From: an uncultured virus (IMG/VR IMGVR_UViG_3300037483_000303)
Lineage: Duplodnaviria; Heunggongvirae; Uroviricota; Caudoviricetes
Direction: 5' to 3' (one strand)
Length of the DNA stretch: 64,000 nt
Virus record (IMG/VR): IMGVR_UViG_3300037483_000303
Shown: piece after piece, positions 39,891 to 52,124 of the stretch
How the letters are laid out: each line of letters opens with the position of its first letter
Numbering within the stretch: the first letter of the stretch is position 1
The notes under the pieces: model-generated
Told to the model about the DNA's origin: nothing
Databases searched by the model: none
Seen by the model: only the letters and a program-made list of their open reading frames with translations
Translations under genes and position numbers: made by a program

Positions 39891-40607
39891 ATGACAATTC
39901 TAAAAAAATGTTACAAGTGCAAAGAACTTAAAGACAAAAGTGAGTTTGGCAATAACAAGGGAAGTACCGATGGATTAAATGGTGTCTGCAAGCGATGTAG
40001 ACTTGTGAATCCTGAACGAAGTGACGAATGGCATGCAAATGTTGTCAGAGGACTCTATCATTGTAGCGATTGTAAGGAATGGCTTGCTATTACTGAGTTC
40101 TACTCTAATCCAGCAAACAAGAATGGTATTCACAGCCAATGCAAGAAGTGCAGCTATAAGCGGTCAAGGAATGCTTACCTTACTAATAAGAATGGGACAA
40201 GAGATAAATCACATGAAGCGAAACGTAAGCAACGTCAAGCAAGCCTGGAAAAGTATCGGGAAATAGATCGAAGGTATGCAGCAAGCCATAGAGAGGAAAA
40301 GTCCAAATATGACTATGAATATTATCGCAGTAATCCAAAGAGAGCACAAAGTCAAAAGGCAGCGGAGCGACGTAGGCGCGTGGCAATGTTTAACGCCACT
40401 GGCAATCATACTGAAGAAGAATGGCAAGCCCTAAAGTCATATTATATGGACCAATGCCTGTGCTGTGGCGATGTACCAGAAAAGCTAAGTAAAGACCATG
40501 TGATTCCGATTTCGCGTGGTGGTTCGGATGACATCAGCAATATTCAACCATTGTGCTTGTCTTGCAATAAAAGTAAGCAAACAAAAACTACTGATTACAG
40601 ATTATGA
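39891..40607 (+). CDS. HNH endonuclease
   Basis: Zn fingers plus KDHVIPISRGGSDDISNIQPLCLSCN. Confidence 0.9.
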   Translation: MTILKKCYKCKELKDKSEFGNNKGSTDGLNGVCKRCRLVNPERSDEWHANVVRGLYHCSDCKEWLAITEFYSNPANKNGIHSQCKKCSYKRSRNAYLTNKNGTRDKSHEAKRKQRQASLEKYREIDRRYAASHREEKSKYDYEYYRSNPKRAQSQKAAERRRRVAMFNATGNHTEEEWQALKSYYMDQCLCCGDVPEKLSKDHVIPISRGGSDDISNIQPLCLSCNKSKQTKTTDYRL

Positions 40608-43233: not shown

Positions 43234-46200
43234 TTGGAGGATGACATTATGAGACTTAATTTAGCGATCAATTTCCCCTCTCGCGGGCGCGGCCTCGGCG
43301 TGACCCGCAGCCCTTACCTGGGACGGCCCCGCCTGGGCTCCCACACCAGCCATAACTTCTCAATGAATCGGATGCAGAGCAGCTACGATCTGTATACCTT
43401 CGGCTTGCATTTCTGGCTAGTCTGGTAACTCAAATAAATGGAGGACGCTAATGACTGACACACTCAATATCCTACGCGCCAAAATAGAAGTGCTCACTTG
43501 TCAGGGTCACCAGCACATCGTTACCCGCTCCGGCACGATCATCAGCGTGAGCACCAAGCCGATGACCTACTGTACCATCGGCCAACACACCCGCTACATG
43601 CCTAATGGTCGCAATGTGATCTACCCACCAGCCACTAACTGCGAAGCCCTAAATATGGACACCAATCACGACCGAGGCTATCTGACCCTGGAAGAGGTGG
43701 CAGCCTGGGTAGATGAACTGGGCGGAGTGGAATCCATCGAGGATTTAGTGATGGCCGAGTATGATGATAGTGATGATCCATTCGGTGATTACCTGGCCTA
43801 CGGCGATGATGAACTCAGTCCCTATGGACGAATAAGCTGATCATGAATCTCGATTGCGAGATACTTCGTAATTACGACAGCGACCCCGTCAAAGCCGGGG
43901 CAAGGAGAGAAAAATGACACACGAAGTTAGACCATTAACCCAAGAAGAAGTTGACGCTTTTGCAGACTATCCTAATTTTGCTAATGTTGCAATGCTAAGT
44001 AGCGATGGCATTTGGTACTACGCCGAGAGCGACTTCCGGTATGGCGATGCTGGCGAGTATGAGGATATGACGATGTTTGTTACCGATGAAGACGGTGACT
44101 ACATCCCGGTAAAAACTAAATAGGCCGAAACACCCGAAAGGGTGTCTACCGAACTGAATCGGTACTGACGAGGCAAAACAAGGAGACGAAAATGCAAACA
44201 AAAAAGCTAGTCATCATCCGAGGCAAAGGCACAAAAGCCGAAACCCGCATCGAAACCGACATCATGCTTTACTGGTCGGCGGCAATGCAGCGTTGGGTTA
44301 GTATACCGGAATAGGAGCACATTATGACCACCCTCATCAACTTAATAAACCTCATTCGTGACATAGCTCGTGACGCCAAAATGTTAGAGAGCAATGAACT
44401 GGCCCGTAAATACGGGCGATAAATAAGATAGCCAGCACCCGTTTAAGCCGGGACAAGGAGAGAAATGATGGAAGCAGTTAAAATAACATACTTGAATGAT
44501 ATAGTTTATGTATATGAAGATGGTGGCGAGCCGATAGCCACCGTCCATTCAGATACAATGGCGATAATCTGGGAAAACAGCCAGGAAGAGCCATACCTGG
44601 GGGCTACCGTAGATGTACTAACGGCGGTAGCAAAAATCATGACGGAGGAAGAATGACTCCCACTGAACAAGCCGCCCTCCGCCAAGCCCGGCGCGTATGG
44701 CTCCAAAAAACTGAGGTTGTCCCCGCGAGAGGCTTTGATGCCGGTTTTGTGGCAGGACTGAGGTACAATCAGGCCAAAATTGGCAAGCTGGTCAGCTTCA
44801 TCAAAGGCGAAATACCACGAAGCGAAATCGAGGAGTTTTTACAATGAACACAAGAAAGTTAGACCCTGATTTAGTAAAAGACATCGCCAGTAACCTGGGA
44901 TGGGAAAAAGGTGAGGACATTGAGCCTTACCTGGAAGAGATAACCCGGATGACTCCAGAGCAAGCCCTTAAATGCTTTGCTGAGTGGACATTGGGTGATC
45001 GAGGATGGGCCACAATTTTTATCAGGCATATAGACCAGTTACGCGAGGCAAGTAAATGAGAGTCCTGTTCAATACCGCCGAGGGAATCCGCAAAGGTTTC
45101 GCGGTTAGATTCTACTCTTGCGGGCATCGCTTTTGGGTCCGCTGTCTTGACGGGTCTACCTACATTGTGGACCTGGCCGACTTAATCGGCACACGCGAAT
45201 TGAGGTTAAAATCGTGATCAGTACAATCGACTATACCAAAATGAGACGCAATTCAAGGATAGCTGGCCACTATATTGCAGTTTGCCCCAAGTGTGGCAAA
45301 AAAGGATTGTGCTTCATCTATCATAAAAAACGGGTAAATGTATACATGCACGAAGGCAAACGAACGCTTGAAGGTGTAGAGGTGACAAAATCCTGCCAGG
45401 TGACGATAGATGACTAGACAAATCACATCCGCTGAATCCGAGGCAATTACAGCCGCCCGACTGGACGCGTTTCAACAGGCCGACAAGTTTCTGGCAGGCT
45501 GGCTCGCCGGTATCAATCACGTTCGCCAGCAACGGGCCGCCGAGCTTGAAGTGGCCGACCTACTGTTAGCCGACCGGCAAGCTACGCTTGATAGGGAGAG
45601 GGCTGATCGGCTGGCCTATGACGAGACGATAGCTAAGCGGTTACAAGCGATAGTGGAGGCATTATGACCACACTCGAAGCCGGCATCCTTGAATCCGTTA
45701 CCCGCTACGAGCGCGAGTCGGGTCGCAAGTTGCCCGATAACAGCTTTTATAAAAGTATCGTTTTGGACATAATGAGAAAATATAAGGAGAGTAAAAAATG
45801 GCAGCCTGGGAATACAAAGTAAACATTAAACAGTATCTCAACCGTGAAGGTGAAGATGATATTGTTACCATTGCAGAGAACATTGCAAAGGAACTTGGCA
45901 ATGTTCCACCCTGGATTTTTCGCAACCTGCCCGCTAAACTTGTCGACGAGACAAGGACCGCAGTTGAGAAAATGCCAGATGACAAGGATTATCACGAACT
46001 GAAATTCAATAAAGTGCTGGATAGAATTTACGATGCGGCTGATGATTACCGGGTATGGCTAGGGTTGATGTGACATACAAAGGCTGGACTATCCACGCTG
46101 AACCAGACTCCATCACCGCCACGAAAGACGGCGAGGAGCTAACTATCCGCAAATTCGGCGCGGTCGAGAACGGGCTGCGACTGATGAGAAACGCGATAGA

Positions 46201-46892
46201 CAGGAGAGAACAAGATGCAGCCACTAGCTAAATTTATCGAACAACTAGAGAATGACATCATCAAGCAGAATTACCTGCTAGATAATTATATCGGCCAAAA
46301 GGACTGGCGTAAAGCTGGTCAACAGCAGGAGTATATCAATGGCCTAAATTTTGCACTACATCTCGCACGGACTAACTATACTGTTACTGATAGGGTTAAA
46401 AATGCAGAACGCCGTAATCCGTCATGGTGGTAAAATAACTATCGTCCAGGCTGGTCCTGATGCACCACGCTATGCTCAATGTGTGTGGTGTGGGATGCCG
46501 GTTGAGTTGAATACCTACAGGTATCTGGACTTTGGCGAGACAGATACCACTTATCACTATGAACATACCTCCGACCTATCCGCCAACGAGTGTCAGAGGT
46601 TGCGAGATGCGGCGCAGGCGGAGTTAGATAAGGTGCTGAATCTCAATCGAAAGGACTCATAATGGAAAAAATATGTCTATTCTGCAAATATTTTAGATTC
46701 CTGCCTGCCACACCTGGCTATTCTGATGTCACACCTGGCAATGATGCCTGGATAGGCTGCGGCCTTAATTACTGGCAACTCGACCACTGGGAAGATAACG
46801 AGGAATCGTATCGAGCCAAGCAGCTTACGGCGCAAACGTGCAAAGAGTTTGAGCAGGTTGATTTAGTTGCATTGGGTGTTAAGGTTAGCTGA
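43234..46892 (+). other. Second array of small early ORFs
   Basis: Many short coupled ORFs with AAGGAG RBS. Confidence 0.6.
44124..44174 (+). ncRNA. Type II hammerhead ribozyme
   Basis: GCC-GAAA-CACCC-gaaa-GGGTG-TC^-TACCGA-loop-TCGGTA-CTGACGA-GGC: all core nucleotides and three stems present. Confidence 0.88.
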
Positions 46893-48751
46893 TGAGTGAT
46901 AAACCCGTTATCGAATTTCACGGACTCTATAAAGAGCGTTGGGGTGACCTAATTTCTCCCTCTGCAATTTCTCACCCTGCTAAGTTTTCTCATGGCCTTA
47001 TCCGTCGCATTTACGAATATGCACTGGAGCAAGGATACGTCAAGCCAAATAACAAAATTCTGGACCCCTTTGGTGGCGTGGGCCTCGGCAGTTTCTATTG
47101 TGCTATGAACGGAATGGCATGGGATGGCTGCGAATTGGAGCCGAGTTTCGTTACACTTGGATATAAAAACTTCTTACTATGGGCAGAAAGGTTTTGGTGT
47201 ACCTGTGAAAGTGAATCTTACTTGTATCTATTGCGGGATTATATTCGAGAGAGAGAAAAGCGAAGCGAACCGGAAACGAAAGAGCAAGACCGGTCCATTT
47301 TGCAGCCGGAAGTGCAAAAACAGTTATCACTTTTTGGGGAAGAAGTTATCACCAGAACGAATCCAATTGATGAAGGAACCGGCCAGGACAACACTCAGGA
47401 AGTGCAATCAGGAATTTCTGGGCAACCGTACGATGAATCTTTGCAGCGACTTGTGCAAGAAACAAAGGCGCAGAGAATACGGGCGCAGGCGAAGAGAGAG
47501 GATGAAGGCACTTTTTGTAAACAATGTGGTAAAGTAATAGTTCAGTTTCCAATACTTTATCAAGGCGATTCGCGTCACCTGGCTAGTATCCTGGCTCAGC
47601 AGGTAGAGTCGTTAGTAAGCTCGCCGCCATATGTTGAAAGTTTACATCTCAATGAATCACGTGAAAAAGAATTAGAGCGAATGAAACAGCGGGGCCTTGA
47701 GTCGACTATAGCTAAGGCGTCTCGCGATGGTTCTTTTAGAGGCGATGCGAATAAAGGTTATAGCTCAACCCTCGCCCAACTTGGCAATATGCCAGTCGGT
47801 GACCTGGCCGACGCGCTTCTGGCCTCACCACCGTATATTGACAGCATTGACCATGCACCCGGCAACAAAAATTGGACAGGAGCTATACCTGGTAACATCA
47901 AACAAAGCGAGTATGGACAAGCTGATAATCAACTAGGCTCACTCCCATCTGGCAATCTGGACGCGCTAATTAGCTCCTCCCCATTTGCCGACTCCATCGG
48001 CTCCGATGACCCCGATAAACGCGGGGGACTCTATCGGGACGAGCGTCGCCGCAATGACAAGAATCTAACGGGCAGTTATAGGACCAGTCGAGGGCAATTG
48101 GGGACGATGAAGGATGAGGGGTTTGACGATGCACTGCAAGCCGATGGACTGATAGGGTCGCCGCCGTATTCTAACGCGCCTGTTACATCATACGATAGCA
48201 ACCAAATGGGAGAGGACTTTAGATTGACTGGCAAAACACCCCGACAAAGGACAGGAGGCAAATTACCATCTGAACAGTATAATATAGATAACCCCAACCA
48301 GCTTGCCAACCTACCCGATAAGGGATTCGATATGTCGGTATCTAGCCCCTCCTTCGCCGGTAACACTGGCGGTCGTGGCGAAGCCTCGCGCAACGGCATT
48401 GACCCGGCGCTATTTGACCGGTCATCAGGTGGGATGAAAAAAGGGACGGGGGATAGTAGCGAGAATCTGGATCATTTGAGTATGACAGGGTTTGAGGCAT
48501 CAGTAAGTAGCCCAGGGTTTGGTGGTTCTGAGATAAGCGATAATCGAAAAACGATAAATGAGACTATAAAAGCACGTGGAACGGCCGTGGTAAATGGTTG
48601 GGGCACTTACTCCAAAGATAACGTATCAGCACAATCCGGGCAAACATTTTGGGCTGCGAGTAAAGAGATATTATTGCAATGCTGGCAGTTGCTCAAAAGC
48701 GGAGGCGAATCCGTACCAGATAATGAGGATATAGATTTTTGCGACTGTTGA
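46892..48751 (+). CDS. N4C/N6A-type DNA methyltransferase, N-terminal part with repeated SPPY modules
   Basis: HPAKF, ILDPFGGVG, ELE, GDSR, six SPPY-like repeats; ends LKSGG...FCDC*. Confidence 0.75.
   Translation: MSDKPVIEFHGLYKERWGDLISPSAISHPAKFSHGLIRRIYEYALEQGYVKPNNKILDPFGGVGLGSFYCAMNGMAWDGCELEPSFVTLGYKNFLLWAERFWCTCESESYLYLLRDYIREREKRSEPETKEQDRSILQPEVQKQLSLFGEEVITRTNPIDEGTGQDNTQEVQSGISGQPYDESLQRLVQETKAQRIRAQAKREDEGTFCKQCGKVIVQFPILYQGDSRHLASILAQQVESLVSSPPYVESLHLNESREKELERMKQRGLESTIAKASRDGSFRGDANKGYSSTLAQLGNMPVGDLADALLASPPYIDSIDHAPGNKNWTGAIPGNIKQSEYGQADNQLGSLPSGNLDALISSSPFADSIGSDDPDKRGGLYRDERRRNDKNLTGSYRTSRGQLGTMKDEGFDDALQADGLIGSPPYSNAPVTSYDSNQMGEDFRLTGKTPRQRTGGKLPSEQYNIDNPNQLANLPDKGFDMSVSSPSFAGNTGGRGEASRNGIDPALFDRSSGGMKKGTGDSSENLDHLSMTGFEASVSSPGFGGSEISDNRKTINETIKARGTAVVNGWGTYSKDNVSAQSGQTFWAASKEILLQCWQLLKSGGESVPDNEDIDFCDC
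47205..47537 (+). CDS. Nested alternative-frame zinc-finger ORF inside the MTase gene
   Basis: CIYCG..F...FCSRKC...CSDLC; start uncertain (47124 ATG or 47205 GTG). Confidence 0.55.
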   Translation: MKVNLTCIYCGIIFEREKSEANRKRKSKTGPFCSRKCKNSYHFLGKKLSPERIQLMKEPARTTLRKCNQEFLGNRTMNLCSDLCKKQRRREYGRRRRERMKALFVNNVVK

Positions 48752-48806
48752 ATTTTGTTTTTAGGTAACAGTCTGGTATAATACCTAGATACAAAAGGAG
48801 GCAGTT

Positions 48807-49718
48807 ATGAATATCAATTGGGACTATGTAGCGGGCTTTACTGATGGTGAAGGATACTTAGGAGTTATTGGGAAAGGCCCTAGAATTGTTTGGGGACAGA
48901 AAGACAAGCATCAACTTGAAGTTATAAGAGATTTCTTTATAGCTGAGGGTCTACATCCCAACTTGACTGTTAGAAGAACTAGAAATAAACAACCGAATCC
49001 AATTTGGCTACTAAGTCTAACGAGACGTGCTGAGGTTCTATATTCTGTCGAGATACTAGAAAATAAGCTAGTCCTAAAAATACCTCAGTGTGAAACTATC
49101 AAAAAATGGGCAAGCGAACACCCTACAAGAAATGCCAATATGCTACCTGTAGACCCAATTAGATTCAATGAATTGTATCAAGAGGGATATACTCAGGTCA
49201 GTATTGGAAAAATAATGGGTCACTCTCCAAGTGTCATATACAAGTTTGTTAAAGAGAATGATTTTAACTTCAAGGTCGGTGGAGGATCAAGAATAGTTGA
49301 TGGTAAGAGATTACCAGCTATGACAGATCGAGAACGCATACTACATCGAAGAAGGAAAGAGAAGGTTGGCATTTGCCCTAAATGTGGCAACCTTATGTAC
49401 AAAGCAAGCAAACAGTGTAGAGCCTGTTCAAATAAGAATCGTATCAAGCGCGGGAAAAAAGATAGAATAAATGTCAACTGTGGTACTTGTGGGAAACCTC
49501 TACAAAAATTAGAAAGTCAATTAAAGCATTATCCACTGTCATTTTGTGATAAAAATTGTCGGGCAAAATACCGAATCAACGATTGGTCAAAGAGATTTGA
49601 CTGTTGCATAGATTGCGGAACAACCTCAGTTAAACACATAGCAAAAGGGAGATGTAAAGCATGTCACAACAAATGGTATTGGCACACACTCAGAAAAAAG
49701 TCATTATCAAAAACGTAG
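48807..49718 (+). CDS. LAGLIDADG homing endonuclease with HTH and Zn-finger tail
   Basis: WDYVAGFTDGEG; own TGgTATAAT (48774-48782) and AAGGAGG RBS. Confidence 0.88.
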   Translation: MNINWDYVAGFTDGEGYLGVIGKGPRIVWGQKDKHQLEVIRDFFIAEGLHPNLTVRRTRNKQPNPIWLLSLTRRAEVLYSVEILENKLVLKIPQCETIKKWASEHPTRNANMLPVDPIRFNELYQEGYTQVSIGKIMGHSPSVIYKFVKENDFNFKVGGGSRIVDGKRLPAMTDRERILHRRRKEKVGICPKCGNLMYKASKQCRACSNKNRIKRGKKDRINVNCGTCGKPLQKLESQLKHYPLSFCDKNCRAKYRINDWSKRFDCCIDCGTTSVKHIAKGRCKACHNKWYWHTLRKKSLSKT

Positions 49719-50053
49719 AGTATGAGGTCTGTGAGTGCTGCAACAAACCTAAGCGCGGGACCGGCAAAAGTTTAGGCGCTGTATCTATGTGGGTGGTGAA
49801 AAATTATGTCAAGTCTGGCCGCATCGTGGATTTTGTGGATCAATGGCGTATGTTGTGCGAGGCTTGCGGATTCGAGCACATAGAGACAATCATAGCCTGG
49901 CAGGTAGAACACAAGCCGGGTCAATACGATACCGATGGTGAGCTAAAAAGTAAGATTATCCGTCGTCAGTCGTTCTTTAGAATCCTTGCGATTAAGAACA
50001 ATCCAGAGACAGCCATTGACTATGAGTGTGTCCTGGTAATGCGTAAAAAGTAG
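49661..50053 (+). CDS. C-terminal part of the split DNA methyltransferase
   Basis: CECC then AVSMWVVKNYVKSGRIVDF...CEACGF, the expected continuation after LKxGG. Confidence 0.65.
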   Translation: MSQQMVLAHTQKKVIIKNVEYEVCECCNKPKRGTGKSLGAVSMWVVKNYVKSGRIVDFVDQWRMLCEACGFEHIETIIAWQVEHKPGQYDTDGELKSKIIRRQSFFRILAIKNNPETAIDYECVLVMRKK

Positions 50054-50083
50054 CATCCAACCCGGTAGAATTAGCCAAGAAAG

Positions 50084-50181
50084 GAAACTCCCCAAGAGTC
50101 GGCCTGCCGGTTTAGATGAGGGGGTGGCGGTGCTCAGGAGTCGTGGGGCAAACGATGATAGGCCGCTACCCCTTTTTTAAT
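50084..50181 (+). ncRNA. Structured cis-regulatory element, copy 1
   Basis: GAAACTCCCC..GCCGGTT..ATGAGGGG..GCGGTGCTCAGGAGTCGTGGG..CAAACGA..GCCGC..CCCCTTTTTT. Confidence 0.6.
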
Positions 50182-50185
50182 AAAA

Positions 50186-50422
50186 ATGAAATGTAAAATT
50201 TGCTTAAGTAATACTGCGGTAATAGATAGCAGGTCAAAAAATGATACGGTAGTCCGATGGAGAAAGTGTTTGAGTTGTGGATTTAAATTCCAAACATATG
50301 AAAGCTCCATTCTCACCATACCAGAGGATGATATAGCTCATAAGGTCAAGCTACTAAAAAGGCGGATGAATAGAGAGTTTGATAAAATTATGGATGATAT
50401 ACTAAAAGGAAATTTGAGCTAA
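50186..50422 (+). CDS. NrdR-like N-terminal zinc ribbon protein
   Basis: MKCKIC..TAVIDSR..RWRKCLSCGFKFQTYE. Confidence 0.7.
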   Translation: MKCKICLSNTAVIDSRSKNDTVVRWRKCLSCGFKFQTYESSILTIPEDDIAHKVKLLKRRMNREFDKIMDDILKGNLS

Positions 50423-50430
50423 TGAAATGA

Positions 50431-50523
50431 GAAACTCCCCTGGTGGCAATGCCGGTTGAATGAGGGGTAGCGGTGCTCAGGAGTCGTGGGCAAACGACTA
50501 AAAGCCGCCGCCCCTTTTTTAAT
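50431..50523 (+). ncRNA. Structured cis-regulatory element, copy 2
   Basis: Diverged direct repeat of 50084-50181. Confidence 0.6.
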
Positions 50524-51097
50524 GGAGATAAAAGCGGAAAGGAATTATATAATGTCAGAAAAGTACATCGAACTAAATTCAGATGGCCGAATCCATTGCT
50601 TTATCGAAGTCAACGACAATAACTATGCAGATTACTATGATGTTGACTGGAGTCTTCGTGATGGTTGTTATTACTGCCATCTGTCTGGTGGTGGCCCGTT
50701 TGAGATGAAAAAGGAGTTTGTCATGGTGGGGAATGAGTTCGACATTTGGACCATCGCTGGAGATGCGAATGTTGAATATTGCGGCAAATGCAAAAGCAAT
50801 ATTTCAACAGATAATCTCTGTAAACATATTTGGTGGAGCAATAAGATAGAATGGTGGTCAACGCCAGATGATAGAAAGCGAAAGGTGTTGGCAATATGAG
50901 AATCCTAACACCCGCTGAAAGCGCGAGATTGAGAAAAGACGGAAAGACATTATCAATATAGGCAATTACACGGGGAATAATGCCATAAAGATGGCCATAA
51001 CAATCACGCCAAAAAATAGCCAGTTCTGGCTAAACATCCTTGATTTAGCTTTGGGGCAAAACGAGGATATGCAATTGCCCTTTTTAAGTGAGGTGTA

Positions 51098-51907
51098 ATG
51101 TACAAATTGATACATGGCGATTGCCTGGAAGAAATGGATAGAATCGAGTCGGGGTCGGTTGATATGATTTTAGCCGATTTGCCGTATCAGACTACGGCCT
51201 GCGAGTGGGATTTATCAATCCCACTCATATCGCTATGGAGTCAATACAAACGGGTAATTAAAGCTAGTGGAGTGATTGCCTTAACGTCTGATGAGCCATT
51301 TACTAGCATCTTGATTATGAACGATTTGCAGCTATTCAAATACAAGTGGATTTGGAAAAAAACACGTCCCACCGGATTCTTAGATGCAAACGAGAAGCCA
51401 CTTGACGATTATGAGGAAGTGATTATATTTTACTCTATTCAGCCGACGTACAACCCCCAACGATGGAAAGGGAATCCTAACCATGTTAAACATGGCAAGG
51501 GAGTCTTGATTAACCGGTCAAAGATTTACAATGGCAAAAATAGAGAAATTGTTATGTACCAGACTGAGGACAAGTATCCACGAAAGGTTATTGAGATTCC
51601 TTCACTGAATCCCGCTCAAAAATCGTTACACCCAACCCAAAAGCCCGTTGCCCTTCTCTCCTATCTTATTAAAACCTACACCAACGAAGGCGAGACAGTT
51701 TTAGATAATACAATGGGCAGCGGCTCAACCGGCGAGGCTTGTCTAGTAACCAACCGTCAATTCATTGGTATAGAATTAGATAAGAGTTACTTTGACATTG
51801 CAACCCAACGCCTTGCCCGTGTAGCCGCCGAATTGCGCGGTGAGTATATGCCAAAAGTAGCAACCAAGATGCTTGACGATTTACCTATGTTTAAGGGGTT
51901 AAAATGA
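51098..51907 (+). CDS. N4/N6 DNA methyltransferase (beta class)
   Basis: GDCLE, ADLPY, HPTQKP, LDNTMGSGST. Confidence 0.92.
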   Translation: MYKLIHGDCLEEMDRIESGSVDMILADLPYQTTACEWDLSIPLISLWSQYKRVIKASGVIALTSDEPFTSILIMNDLQLFKYKWIWKKTRPTGFLDANEKPLDDYEEVIIFYSIQPTYNPQRWKGNPNHVKHGKGVLINRSKIYNGKNREIVMYQTEDKYPRKVIEIPSLNPAQKSLHPTQKPVALLSYLIKTYTNEGETVLDNTMGSGSTGEACLVTNRQFIGIELDKSYFDIATQRLARVAAELRGEYMPKVATKMLDDLPMFKGLK

Positions 51908-52124
51908 CAACCCTTGACAGTGAAGAAAACACTGCTGCATCCATAGCCCGTCTACTTGCCCTGTCACCCGATGCCGACCATCTCAAGGCGTTGCTTGACG
52001 AGGTTTACTGCGCGGAGCGATACAAGATCAAGCAGACTGGTAAAATGCAGCGGGGGGTAATGTCGGTGACGGAGTTGATTAAAAAGGTTAATCAAGTAAC
52101 TCACGTTTGATTAACCGGTGGCAA

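Follow-up and report, generated by a model that had tools for sequence, protein, structure and literature searches.

How might a phage enzyme be kept when a homing endonuclease gene settles inside its gene and neither an intron nor an intein is there to restore the product? The question is raised by the viral record IMGVR_UViG_3300037483_000303 of IMG/VR (Caudoviricetes), of which a stretch of 64,000 nucleotides (nt), referred to here as the window, was analysed. In it, the gene for a DNA methyltransferase is divided into an N-half and a C-half by a free-standing LAGLIDADG endonuclease gene, and extra residues are present at both new ends: a C-terminal tail on the N-half and an N-terminal leader on the C-half. 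The original prediction, made from the letters of the window, proposed that a Cys pair at each new end jointly binds zinc and rejoins the halves. Overall, we consider the best explanation, with a probability of about 0.6, to be a mobile cassette that splits the methyltransferase and supplies tails that reassemble the halves. The window is phage-like: terminase and tape-measure proteins are matched weakly and HNH/endonuclease VII strongly. The methyltransferase family is common in viral contigs. Neither megablast of positions 46000–52000 nor tblastn of all three proteins gave a match in the phage GenBank records of INPHARED.

The locus comprises three open reading frames (ORFs) on the plus strand, present in both the ORF listing and the raw sequence: 46892..48751, 48807..49718 and 49661..50053. 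The body of the first, which encodes 619 residues, ends in ...LLQCWQLLKSGG (the helix at this end reads ...FWAASKEILLQCWQLLKSGG) and is followed by ESVPDNEDIDFCDC and a TGA at 48749–48751; beyond the L-K-S-G-G turn, the protein thus continues for 14 additional residues, against about 15 in the original prediction, and stops. Between this stop and the endonuclease ATG lie exactly 55 nt (48752–48806), as stated in the original prediction, and the endonuclease ORF overlaps the third ORF (130 residues), as also noted there, by 58 nt. The third ORF reads ...VCECCNKPKRGTGKSLG followed by AVSMWVVKNYVKSG... (in a longer reading, MSQQMVLAHTQKKVIIKNVEYEVCECCNKPKRGTGKSLG followed by AVSMWVVKNYVKSGRIVDF...) and has an AAGGGAG at 49645–49651, 9 nt upstream of its ATG. 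The first and third ORFs are in the same reading frame. The sequence observations of the original prediction are thereby all confirmed. Ribosomal bypassing, considered because the halves share a frame, was rejected because the gap is 1,071 nt.

A search with the N-part protein, in which 8,000 candidates were scored, returned 201 homologs at an expect value (E) ≤ 1e-3, 120 of which were listed. All 12 close full-length homologs (P0002–P0013, 631–786 residues) run uninterrupted from L-[KR]-x-[GH]-[AG] into [YV]-[ST]-F-W-V-V-K, and past the junction their C-termini align with ORF 49661..50053, which is thus the C-terminus of the methyltransferase. The same continuity is found in DNA: all 38 loci detected with a profile of the C-half (5 in genomes and 33 in viral contigs) are uninterrupted at the site, and a methyltransferase profile found six loci in metagenome contigs, of which five cover the junction and are unsplit (for example L004, ...LLRPNAVSMWVVKNYVKSGRIVNF...), and one, L006, ends before it. 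As homologs are continuous across the junction, the break, the 14-residue tail and the 39-residue leader are real extra sequence. In the one DNA run that holds this stretch, contigs cross each of the two junctions with 0 differences and include none with a deletion, although the run may be the source sample and is then not independent. An imperfect 14-nt direct repeat, CAAAAGnnnAGGCG, lies on both sides of the 1,071-nt insert, and a copy of the K-S-x-G turn is present in both halves; a [KR]-[ST]-x-G-[GA] turn is preserved in most of the 14 aligned leaders described below. The GC content is 0.355–0.41 over the insert versus 0.43–0.56 in flanking methyltransferase windows.

The enzyme itself carries the motifs of N6/N4 methyltransferases in its N-half, motif I (F-x-G-x-G) as DPFGGVG and motif IV ([DS]-P-P-[YF]) as several copies of SSPPY, and D58, F60, G62 and S244-P245-P246 are invariant in the N-half alignment. 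Most relatives among the matches listed carry the Pfam domain PF01555; the window N-part scores 17.1 bits on it, under the cutoff of 26.7.

The inserted gene encodes a protein with the motif YVAGFTDGEGY, of which A-G-F-x-D-G-E-G, including D13-G14-E15-G16, is invariant across an alignment of 14 relatives. An exhaustive search returned 380 relatives at E ≤ 1e-3 and 17 at E ≤ 1e-30. The four relatives scanned with Pfam (P0126, P0129, P0130 and P0133) score 22.9–30.3 bits on LAGLIDADG_3, above its cutoff of 22.5, and in the window protein Pfam reports a helix-turn-helix and zinc ribbons. An AlphaFold2 model, with a mean predicted local distance difference test score (pLDDT) of 87.5, was compared with the Protein Data Bank using Foldseek; the top matches were I-CvuI, I-Vdi141I, I-MsoI, I-CreI and I-TnaI (probability 1.00, E from 3.4e-5 to 1e-3, target-normalised template-modelling score about 0.5), among 48 matches at E ≤ 1e-3. 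In the model, the α-β-β-α-β-β-α core fold is present. The split by a free-standing LAGLIDADG gene, as originally claimed, is supported. The claim that this gene has its own promoter and ribosome-binding site holds for the latter: its ATG is preceded by AAGGAGG (48795–48801). The candidate −10 box TGGTATAAT (48774–48782) is absent from the general promoter scan because a −35 hexamer is lacking, so a promoter here is conjectural. The 103-nt segment that runs from the tail up to the ATG (48704–48806) folds at −26 kcal/mol (z −2.72; 3 of 200 shuffles equally stable), and the hairpin before the endonuclease gene sequesters the Shine–Dalgarno sequence by pairing and encloses the −10 box. It may regulate endonuclease expression by analogy with hairpins of the same layout drawn for mobE (PMC3045599, Figure 5 legend) and for ‘fractured genes’ (PMC2677866, Figure 1 legend).

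The core of the leader reads KVIIKNVEYEV-C-E-C-C-NKPKRGTGKSLG, with Cys24 encoded at 49730–49732 and Cys27 at 49739–49741. A search among proteins of 71–228 residues returned three more C-halves (P0121, P0122 and P0124, 60–78% identical) with an identical or near-identical leader. A profile broadened with the C-terminal stretches of 11 diverse full-length relatives matched 192 short proteins, and among the 120 matches listed, 13 bear the leader pattern [IV]-x-Y-[EDQN]-[IVL]-C-x-x-C-[GN]-K-P-x-[RS]-[GR]-[TS]-G-[KR]-[ST]-x-x-G before the methyltransferase body, which makes 14 with that of the window. The remaining short matches are mostly fragments that start within the N-part; those starting right at the body may represent additional split forms whose starts were called wrongly. 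In the public annotation, the C-half in the window (P0123, window 49787–50053, 88 residues) starts at Met43 and lacks the leader entirely, and similar short calls among the C-half matches (for example P0292, P0337, P0339 and P0340) may conceal further split forms. Since some short calls may hide leaders, as P0123 does, 14 leader-bearing C-halves is a lower bound.

Across these 14 sequences, whose bodies span 38–77% identity to the window C-half, six leader residues never vary (Y21, C24, C27, K29, P30 and G35). No part of the proteins is better conserved than the leader core: mean pairwise identity (n = 14) is 62.9% in the core and 73.7% in its knuckle, versus 51.7% in the proximal body, 47.9% in the distal body and 26.9% in the 13 residues upstream of the core, which overlap the 3′ end of the endonuclease gene. 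Substitutions in the leader are conservative (K/R, S/T, I/V and E/D), and no RNA fold signal was found over it (z +1.24 for 75 nt and 0.03 for 146 nt). Because the adjoining part of the cassette has diverged freely and leader changes are conservative, we read this conservation as selection on the peptide and not as the result of recent spread or of an RNA element. The leader occurs on split forms only (14 C-halves versus 38 unsplit loci), and a start codon with an open leader frame is present in 13 of the 14, the fourteenth (P0365) being cut at its start. All 14 C-halves retain residues conserved in the unsplit enzyme, for example F58, W62, G70, F71 and S104–R107. In an AlphaFold2 model of the C-half alone, strands at residues 13–16 and 19–23 lie upstream of the C-x-x-C, and the block has a pLDDT of 79–87.

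DNA of other split loci was not found with the C-half protein and profiles in viral, genome and metagenome contigs, where the loci returned were the 38 unsplit ones. When the leader was searched for as a degenerate DNA pattern, there were 0 matches in viral contigs and 3 out-of-frame chance matches in genome contigs, and a profile of the endonuclease found 5 weak loci in viral contigs and none in genome contigs.

The tail, ESVPDNEDIDFCDC, is 14 residues long, begins with Glu and ends in F-C-D-C. Among the 120 N-part matches listed, only the window protein and P0079 (27% identical) stop just past the L-K-x-G-G turn. The C-terminus of P0079 reads ...IKPGG KKVPDVDGVEYCDGE and its last residues are YCDGE; its BLAST alignment runs through the window tail, and the two tails have V-P-D and [FY]-C-D in common but not the final Cys. 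The net charge is −6 for the window tail and −3 for that of P0079 (2 of 2 acidic), versus +2 to +6 for the leaders (14 of 14), so that tail and leader are complementary in sequence-derived charge in all known cases. Extra terminal peptides at the break that unsplit homologs lack, with opposite net charges, are also features of the tails of the split NrdA of phage Aeh1. A MAFFT placement that would make the tails homologous to the V-K-x-G-x-x-V-D-F hairpin of unsplit proteins was treated as an alignment artefact.

To model the complex, the N-half, with a three-row alignment lacking C-terminal regions so as to keep the MAFFT misplacement of the tail out, was combined with the C-half (14-row alignment) and two zinc ions, the zinc being unscored. 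The interaction prediction score from aligned errors (ipSAE) was 0.84, 0.84 and 0.81, versus 0.00 for the best control; of 157 solved complexes, 116 attain the mark used for this score, as do 2 of 215 mismatched pairs, a calibration that is only rough for our own alignments. Contact agreement between runs was at least 63% and partner pLDDT at least 67. The confident interface includes both new ends: residues 606–608, 610–611 and 614–619 on the tail side and residues 16–19, 21, 24, 26–27, 29–33 and 35–43 on the leader side. The complex model is consistent with docking of the tail onto the leader, while stopping short of demonstrating it.

Is zinc involved? The case is circumstantial. The leader has the layout of the first knuckle of a zinc ribbon, an invariant hairpin followed by a C-x-x-C-G-K-P knuckle, with C24 and C27 invariant in 14 of 14 and the modelled strands upstream. 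The partner chain ends in [FY]-C-D(-C) and offers two Cys in the window tail (F-C-D-C) and one in that of P0079 (Y-C-D-G-E), these being the only two tails known. The Cys pairs of the original prediction were corrected in both ends: the invariant pair of the leader is C-x-x-C-[GN]-K-P, formed by the first and fourth residues of CECC, the middle Cys being present in 9 of 14, and of the predicted CxC pair of the tail only one Cys recurs in the second known N-half (...YCDGE). The leader and tail (C-x-x-C-N-K-P and F-C-D-C) echo the middle ribbon of the endonuclease, C-x2-C-G-K-P...F-C-x3-C. Homology of the leader to the endonuclease ribbons (hhalign probability 5.8%) is not claimed, nor is an FCS-type finger, for which scores are below the Pfam cutoffs (zf-FLZ 13.6 bits versus 23.4; zf-FCS 15.4 versus 22.4 in P0130). 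The same pair of motifs occurs within the N-half body, where W-C-x-C (47195–47215) and F-C-K-Q-C-G-K (about 47507–47530) are separated by about 100 residues; all 13 aligned N-half sequences have C103 and C105, and the C-x-x-C-G-K part is present in 10 of 13 in the alignment as read by eye, with a different C-x-x-C insert in place of the second Cys part in P0009 and P0011. This module is probably a native zinc site. Taking leader conservation, opposite charges and the complex interface together, the proposed rejoining of the halves by their new ends has gained support, and we lean towards a functional interaction of some kind between tail and leader; that the two share a zinc, judged from their motifs, is a possibility to which we give slightly less than even odds, and the 2 + 2 Cys clasp that had been proposed is not established.

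If the tails form a working pair, do they travel with the endonuclease? Each C-half body was compared with the other split forms and with 194 unsplit bodies defined by a motif rule, a row being kept when it extended 20 residues upstream and 80 downstream. For 10 of the 14 split bodies the closest relative is unsplit, for 3 it is another split form, and for 1 there is a tie. A FastTree phylogeny of 208 bodies (first 100 residues) requires 13 changes between the split and unsplit states, and 200 shuffles of the labels gave 14 changes 146 times, 13 changes 47 times, 12 changes 6 times and 11 changes once. Split forms thus appear scattered among unsplit ones as by chance, on a short and noisy alignment. 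Individual bodies are mosaic: that of the window matches the split form P0121 at 37 of 40 positions in the proximal part and at 26 of 48 in the distal part, versus 28 of 40 and 42 of 48 for the unsplit P0005, and P0124 matches the unsplit P0012 at 48 of 48 distal and 34 of 40 proximal positions, some of the six differences being towards the split type. Such mosaics fit co-conversion tracts. Together with the scattered distribution and the low GC content of the insert, they are indirect signs of homing, by which the whole cassette, tails included, would move between alleles.

We therefore propose the following scheme. The cassette would consist of tail-coding DNA, the free-standing I-CreI-like LAGLIDADG endonuclease gene and leader-coding DNA, and would occupy the surface turn that joins the end of the L-K-x-G-G helix to the following β-strand in a phage DNA methyltransferase of the N6/N4 type. 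With no RNA or protein splicing, two polypeptides would be made, the C-half from a start within the 3′-terminal part of the endonuclease gene, and would reassemble non-covalently into one methyltransferase domain. The cassette would itself supply the remedy for the break: the N-half would gain an acidic tail at its C-terminus (V-P-D...[FY]-C-D) and the C-half a basic leader at its N-terminus (a β-hairpin and the C-x-x-C-[GN]-K-P knuckle). These would dock beside the break, any shared zinc probably being a single ion held as by the knuckles of a zinc ribbon in trans. The endonuclease would cut unsplit alleles, and repair would copy the cassette and some flank, thereby spreading the tails to diverged methyltransferases.

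Several points weigh against this scheme. In the complex model, the pLDDT of the N-half is 48–51, the 25 best residue pairs are all body contacts with no tail–leader pair among them, and a high score is to be expected when a single domain is modelled as two halves, through likeness to solved methyltransferases. Two N-tails are known, and the one in P0079 has a single Cys and an end that is possibly that of a contig and not a stop. The tree rests on about 90 residues and FastTree, and the scatter could partly be noise or recombination between methyltransferase genes. The presence of an endonuclease gene between the halves at other split loci is assumed, and the window endonuclease itself scores 14.2 bits on LAGLIDADG_3, below the cutoff of 22.5. 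Rfam can miss ORF-bearing group I introns, and the case against an intron is drawn from sequence and predicted folding. Finally, a second intact methyltransferase lies downstream, so that the split enzyme need not be essential.

Of the alternatives, the one that survives best is that the tails are read-through or hitch-hiking cassette sequence with no role, and that the halves reassemble, if at all, by their native interface alone. It would account for the most confident contacts of the model (the best 25), which join helix 587–602 or the N-terminal helices to the C-half body, and for the lack of conservation of the second tail Cys; in Aeh1, moreover, the tails are described as unnecessary for heterodimer formation (PMC3045599). 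However, the leader core is conserved above the enzyme body and far above the adjacent cassette sequence, it keeps six invariant positions while the bodies are only 38–77% identical to the window C-half, and the charges are complementary in every known case. We regard this alternative as unlikely.

A functional leader knuckle that is no clasp, binding DNA or the endonuclease or stabilising the C-half with other ligands, seems less probable still. The C-half does contain an invariant C66, which in 6 of 14 sequences is part of a second C-x-x-C (C66 and C69), and the endonuclease has similar knuckles, albeit with the weak hhalign match given above. However, C69 is missing in 8 of 14, C66 is conserved in unsplit relatives too and lies within the modelled helix interface, and the leader is restricted to split forms.

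It is very improbable that the split inactivated the methyltransferase and left decaying pseudogene pieces, tolerated thanks to the second methyltransferase at 51098..51907. That gene is indeed near (an N6_N4 match with Pfam at 4.3e-27), and the public call for the C-part begins at Met43 (P0123) with no full gene annotated; yet both ORFs are intact, and 14 C-halves keep the conserved residues of the unsplit enzyme over deep divergence.

Slightly less credible still is a self-splicing group I or II intron with an endonuclease ORF, the tails being its translated ends. Endonuclease ORFs can overlap intron cores, the halves share a frame 1,071 nt apart, and the 5′ 103 nt fold well (z −2.72). However, no group I or II intron is among the six chance-level Rfam matches (E up to 10) at 48300–50300, just 55 nt on the 5′ side and about 60 nt on the 3′ side lie outside an ORF, the 3′ segment has no fold signal and there is no U near the 5′ junction. 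Conservation of the leader is of the protein type, with the open frame and start codon of 13 of 14. The original prediction, which saw no room for an intron core and no intein termini, agrees with these results on the first count and, on the second, with a stop codon that ends the tail, an endonuclease in another frame and the lack of a Pfam intein or Hint match. A minimal split intein acting by protein trans-splicing is improbable in the extreme, since tail and leader (14 and 39 residues, 53 in all) do not suffice for a Hint fold, the first tail residue is Glu and not Cys or Ser, and the leader ends in S-L-G followed by Ala, with neither His-Asn nor a nucleophile.

The features of the locus are compiled below.

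Features of the split methyltransferase locus, with positions in the window
Feature	Position	Strand	Remarks
Methyltransferase N-half body, residues 1–605	46892..48706	+	motifs X and I (HPAKF...DPFGGVG), Cys module, six SSPP[YF]-type modules, helix FWAASKEILLQCWQLLKSGG; 201 homologs
Direct repeat, left copy	48694..48707		encodes K-S-G-G; read from sequence
N-half tail ESVPDNEDIDFCDC and TGA	48707..48751	+	not in any unsplit homolog; net charge −6
Spacer hairpin	48743..48806	+	pairs with the endonuclease Shine–Dalgarno sequence; TGGTATAAT inside
Homing endonuclease gene, 303 residues	48807..49718	+	LAGLIDADG domain, helix-turn-helix, three Cys4 ribbons
C-half leader, residues 1–39	49661..49777	+	residues 1–19 overlap the endonuclease 3′ end
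Direct repeat, right copy	49765..49778		encodes K-S-L-G; read from sequence
Methyltransferase C-half body AVSMWVVKNYVKSG...VLVMRKK and stop	49778..50053	+	homolog alignments

The methyltransferase and its surroundings have further features of their own. Within the N-half, window positions 47590–48560 (residues about 235–555) encode six tandem modules of the form Y-G-x-x-x-x-Q-L-G-x-[ML]-P-x-G-x-x-D-x-x-[IV]-S-S-P-P-[YF], which resemble a repeated strand 4 with catalytic motif IV and vary in number among homologs, as seen from indels in the alignment; to our knowledge, motif IV has not been described as repeated in any methyltransferase. The unsplit P0002 has an in-frame insert of about 135 residues (residues about 55–190) in the interval between motifs X and I, and the unsplit P0007 a long low-complexity stretch in the repeat region (residues about 420–560); these are possibly other insertion elements of this gene family. 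Directly past the C-half stop, a GC-rich long-loop hairpin followed by a T-run (50116–50192, plus strand) is probably the intrinsic terminator of the operon; it matches the Rfam family Termite-leu at chance level (E 0.12) and is not in the output of the terminator scan. The second N6_N4 DNA methyltransferase gene (51098–51907, plus strand), with a full-length Pfam match, follows 1 kb downstream, and a similar second methylase follows the unsplit gene at locus L002. Elsewhere in the window, the ORF at 39891–40607 (plus strand) matches HNH/endonuclease VII (phrog_1035, 5.9e-35), has a Lar-like zinc N-terminus and is possibly another homing endonuclease of the same phage.

The closest precedent is the Aeh1 locus nrdA-a/mobE/nrdA-b. 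There, the split NrdA requires tails that came with the insertion of mobE (Crona et al. 2011, PMC3045599), and its authors suggested that such endonuclease-borne tails are perhaps a general neutraliser of gene fragmentation, while expecting them to be idiosyncratic and undetectable by similarity search. In both systems, the gene of an enzyme is interrupted, between elements of secondary structure, by a free-standing homing endonuclease gene whose ORF overlaps the downstream half, the RNA has a hairpin where the endonuclease gene begins, and short, oppositely charged tails missing from unsplit homologs arrived with the insertion. Here, however, the host gene encodes a DNA methyltransferase and the endonuclease is of the LAGLIDADG and not, as in Aeh1, of the HNH family; the polarity is reversed (acidic tail and basic leader), and the tails contain Cys motifs. 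Aeh1 is described as a single case with tails shown to be essential, whereas the leader here is found on 14 diverged alleles and is known from sequence and models. The mechanism class of endonuclease-derived assembly tails is thus already published (PMC3045599). What appears to be new, from comparison of sequences, is the split of a methyltransferase by a LAGLIDADG cassette, the conserved, recurring and apparently portable pair of tails, and their zinc-knuckle character; a literature search, which left subscription journals mostly outside its coverage, found no methyltransferase split by a LAGLIDADG gene and no zinc-mediated pair of tails.

Other systems are similar in part. The ‘fractured genes’ of Dassa et al. 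2009 (PMC2677866), which come mostly from phage and metagenomic DNA, have the same order and strand of an N-part, a spacer of 27–51 nt (55 here) with a possible hairpin, an endonuclease gene and an overlapping C-part. They contain split inteins and a GIY-YIG or Vsr-like endonuclease, whereas here there are no intein halves, the endonuclease is of the LAGLIDADG type and the rejoining is putatively non-covalent. The ShiLan-type insertion in actinophage methylases (PMC11855218) is likewise a homing endonuclease element that is neither intron nor intein, but there the insert remains within a single polypeptide as an in-frame loop and conceals an HNH ORF in another frame, in contrast to the two ORFs found here. 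The endonuclease itself has the fold and the single LAGLIDADG motif of the homodimeric enzymes I-CreI, I-MsoI, I-CvuI and I-Vdi141I, which are intron-encoded, whereas it is free-standing and has an added helix-turn-helix and three Cys4 ribbons. In the CD4/Lck zinc clasp and the Rad50 zinc hook, two chains each supply Cys ligands to one zinc; the likeness of these systems and of FCS-type C2-C2 fingers to the putative sharing of Cys by two chains here is one of resemblance only.

The occurrence of the same leader on 14 split alleles, with conservation above that of the enzyme, points to a module that has evolved and can be transferred, and not to a one-off accident. If zinc is shared, tail and leader would form a natural and very small heterodimerisation tag (14 residues plus about 25 residues) of relevance to split-protein engineering, and would link the split-intein ‘fractured genes’ with plain split genes. 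It would also be a caution to annotators, as the leader is lost from a public C-half call that starts at an internal Met (P0123). Beside introns and inteins, there may then be a third route to a harmless homing element, which we put forward tentatively and at less than even odds: a cassette that carries the halves of a portable zinc-binding clip with which the polypeptides are rejoined. If true, phages would possess a natural, portable, metal-dependent device for the reassembly of split proteins that travels with an endonuclease across diverged phage methyltransferases.

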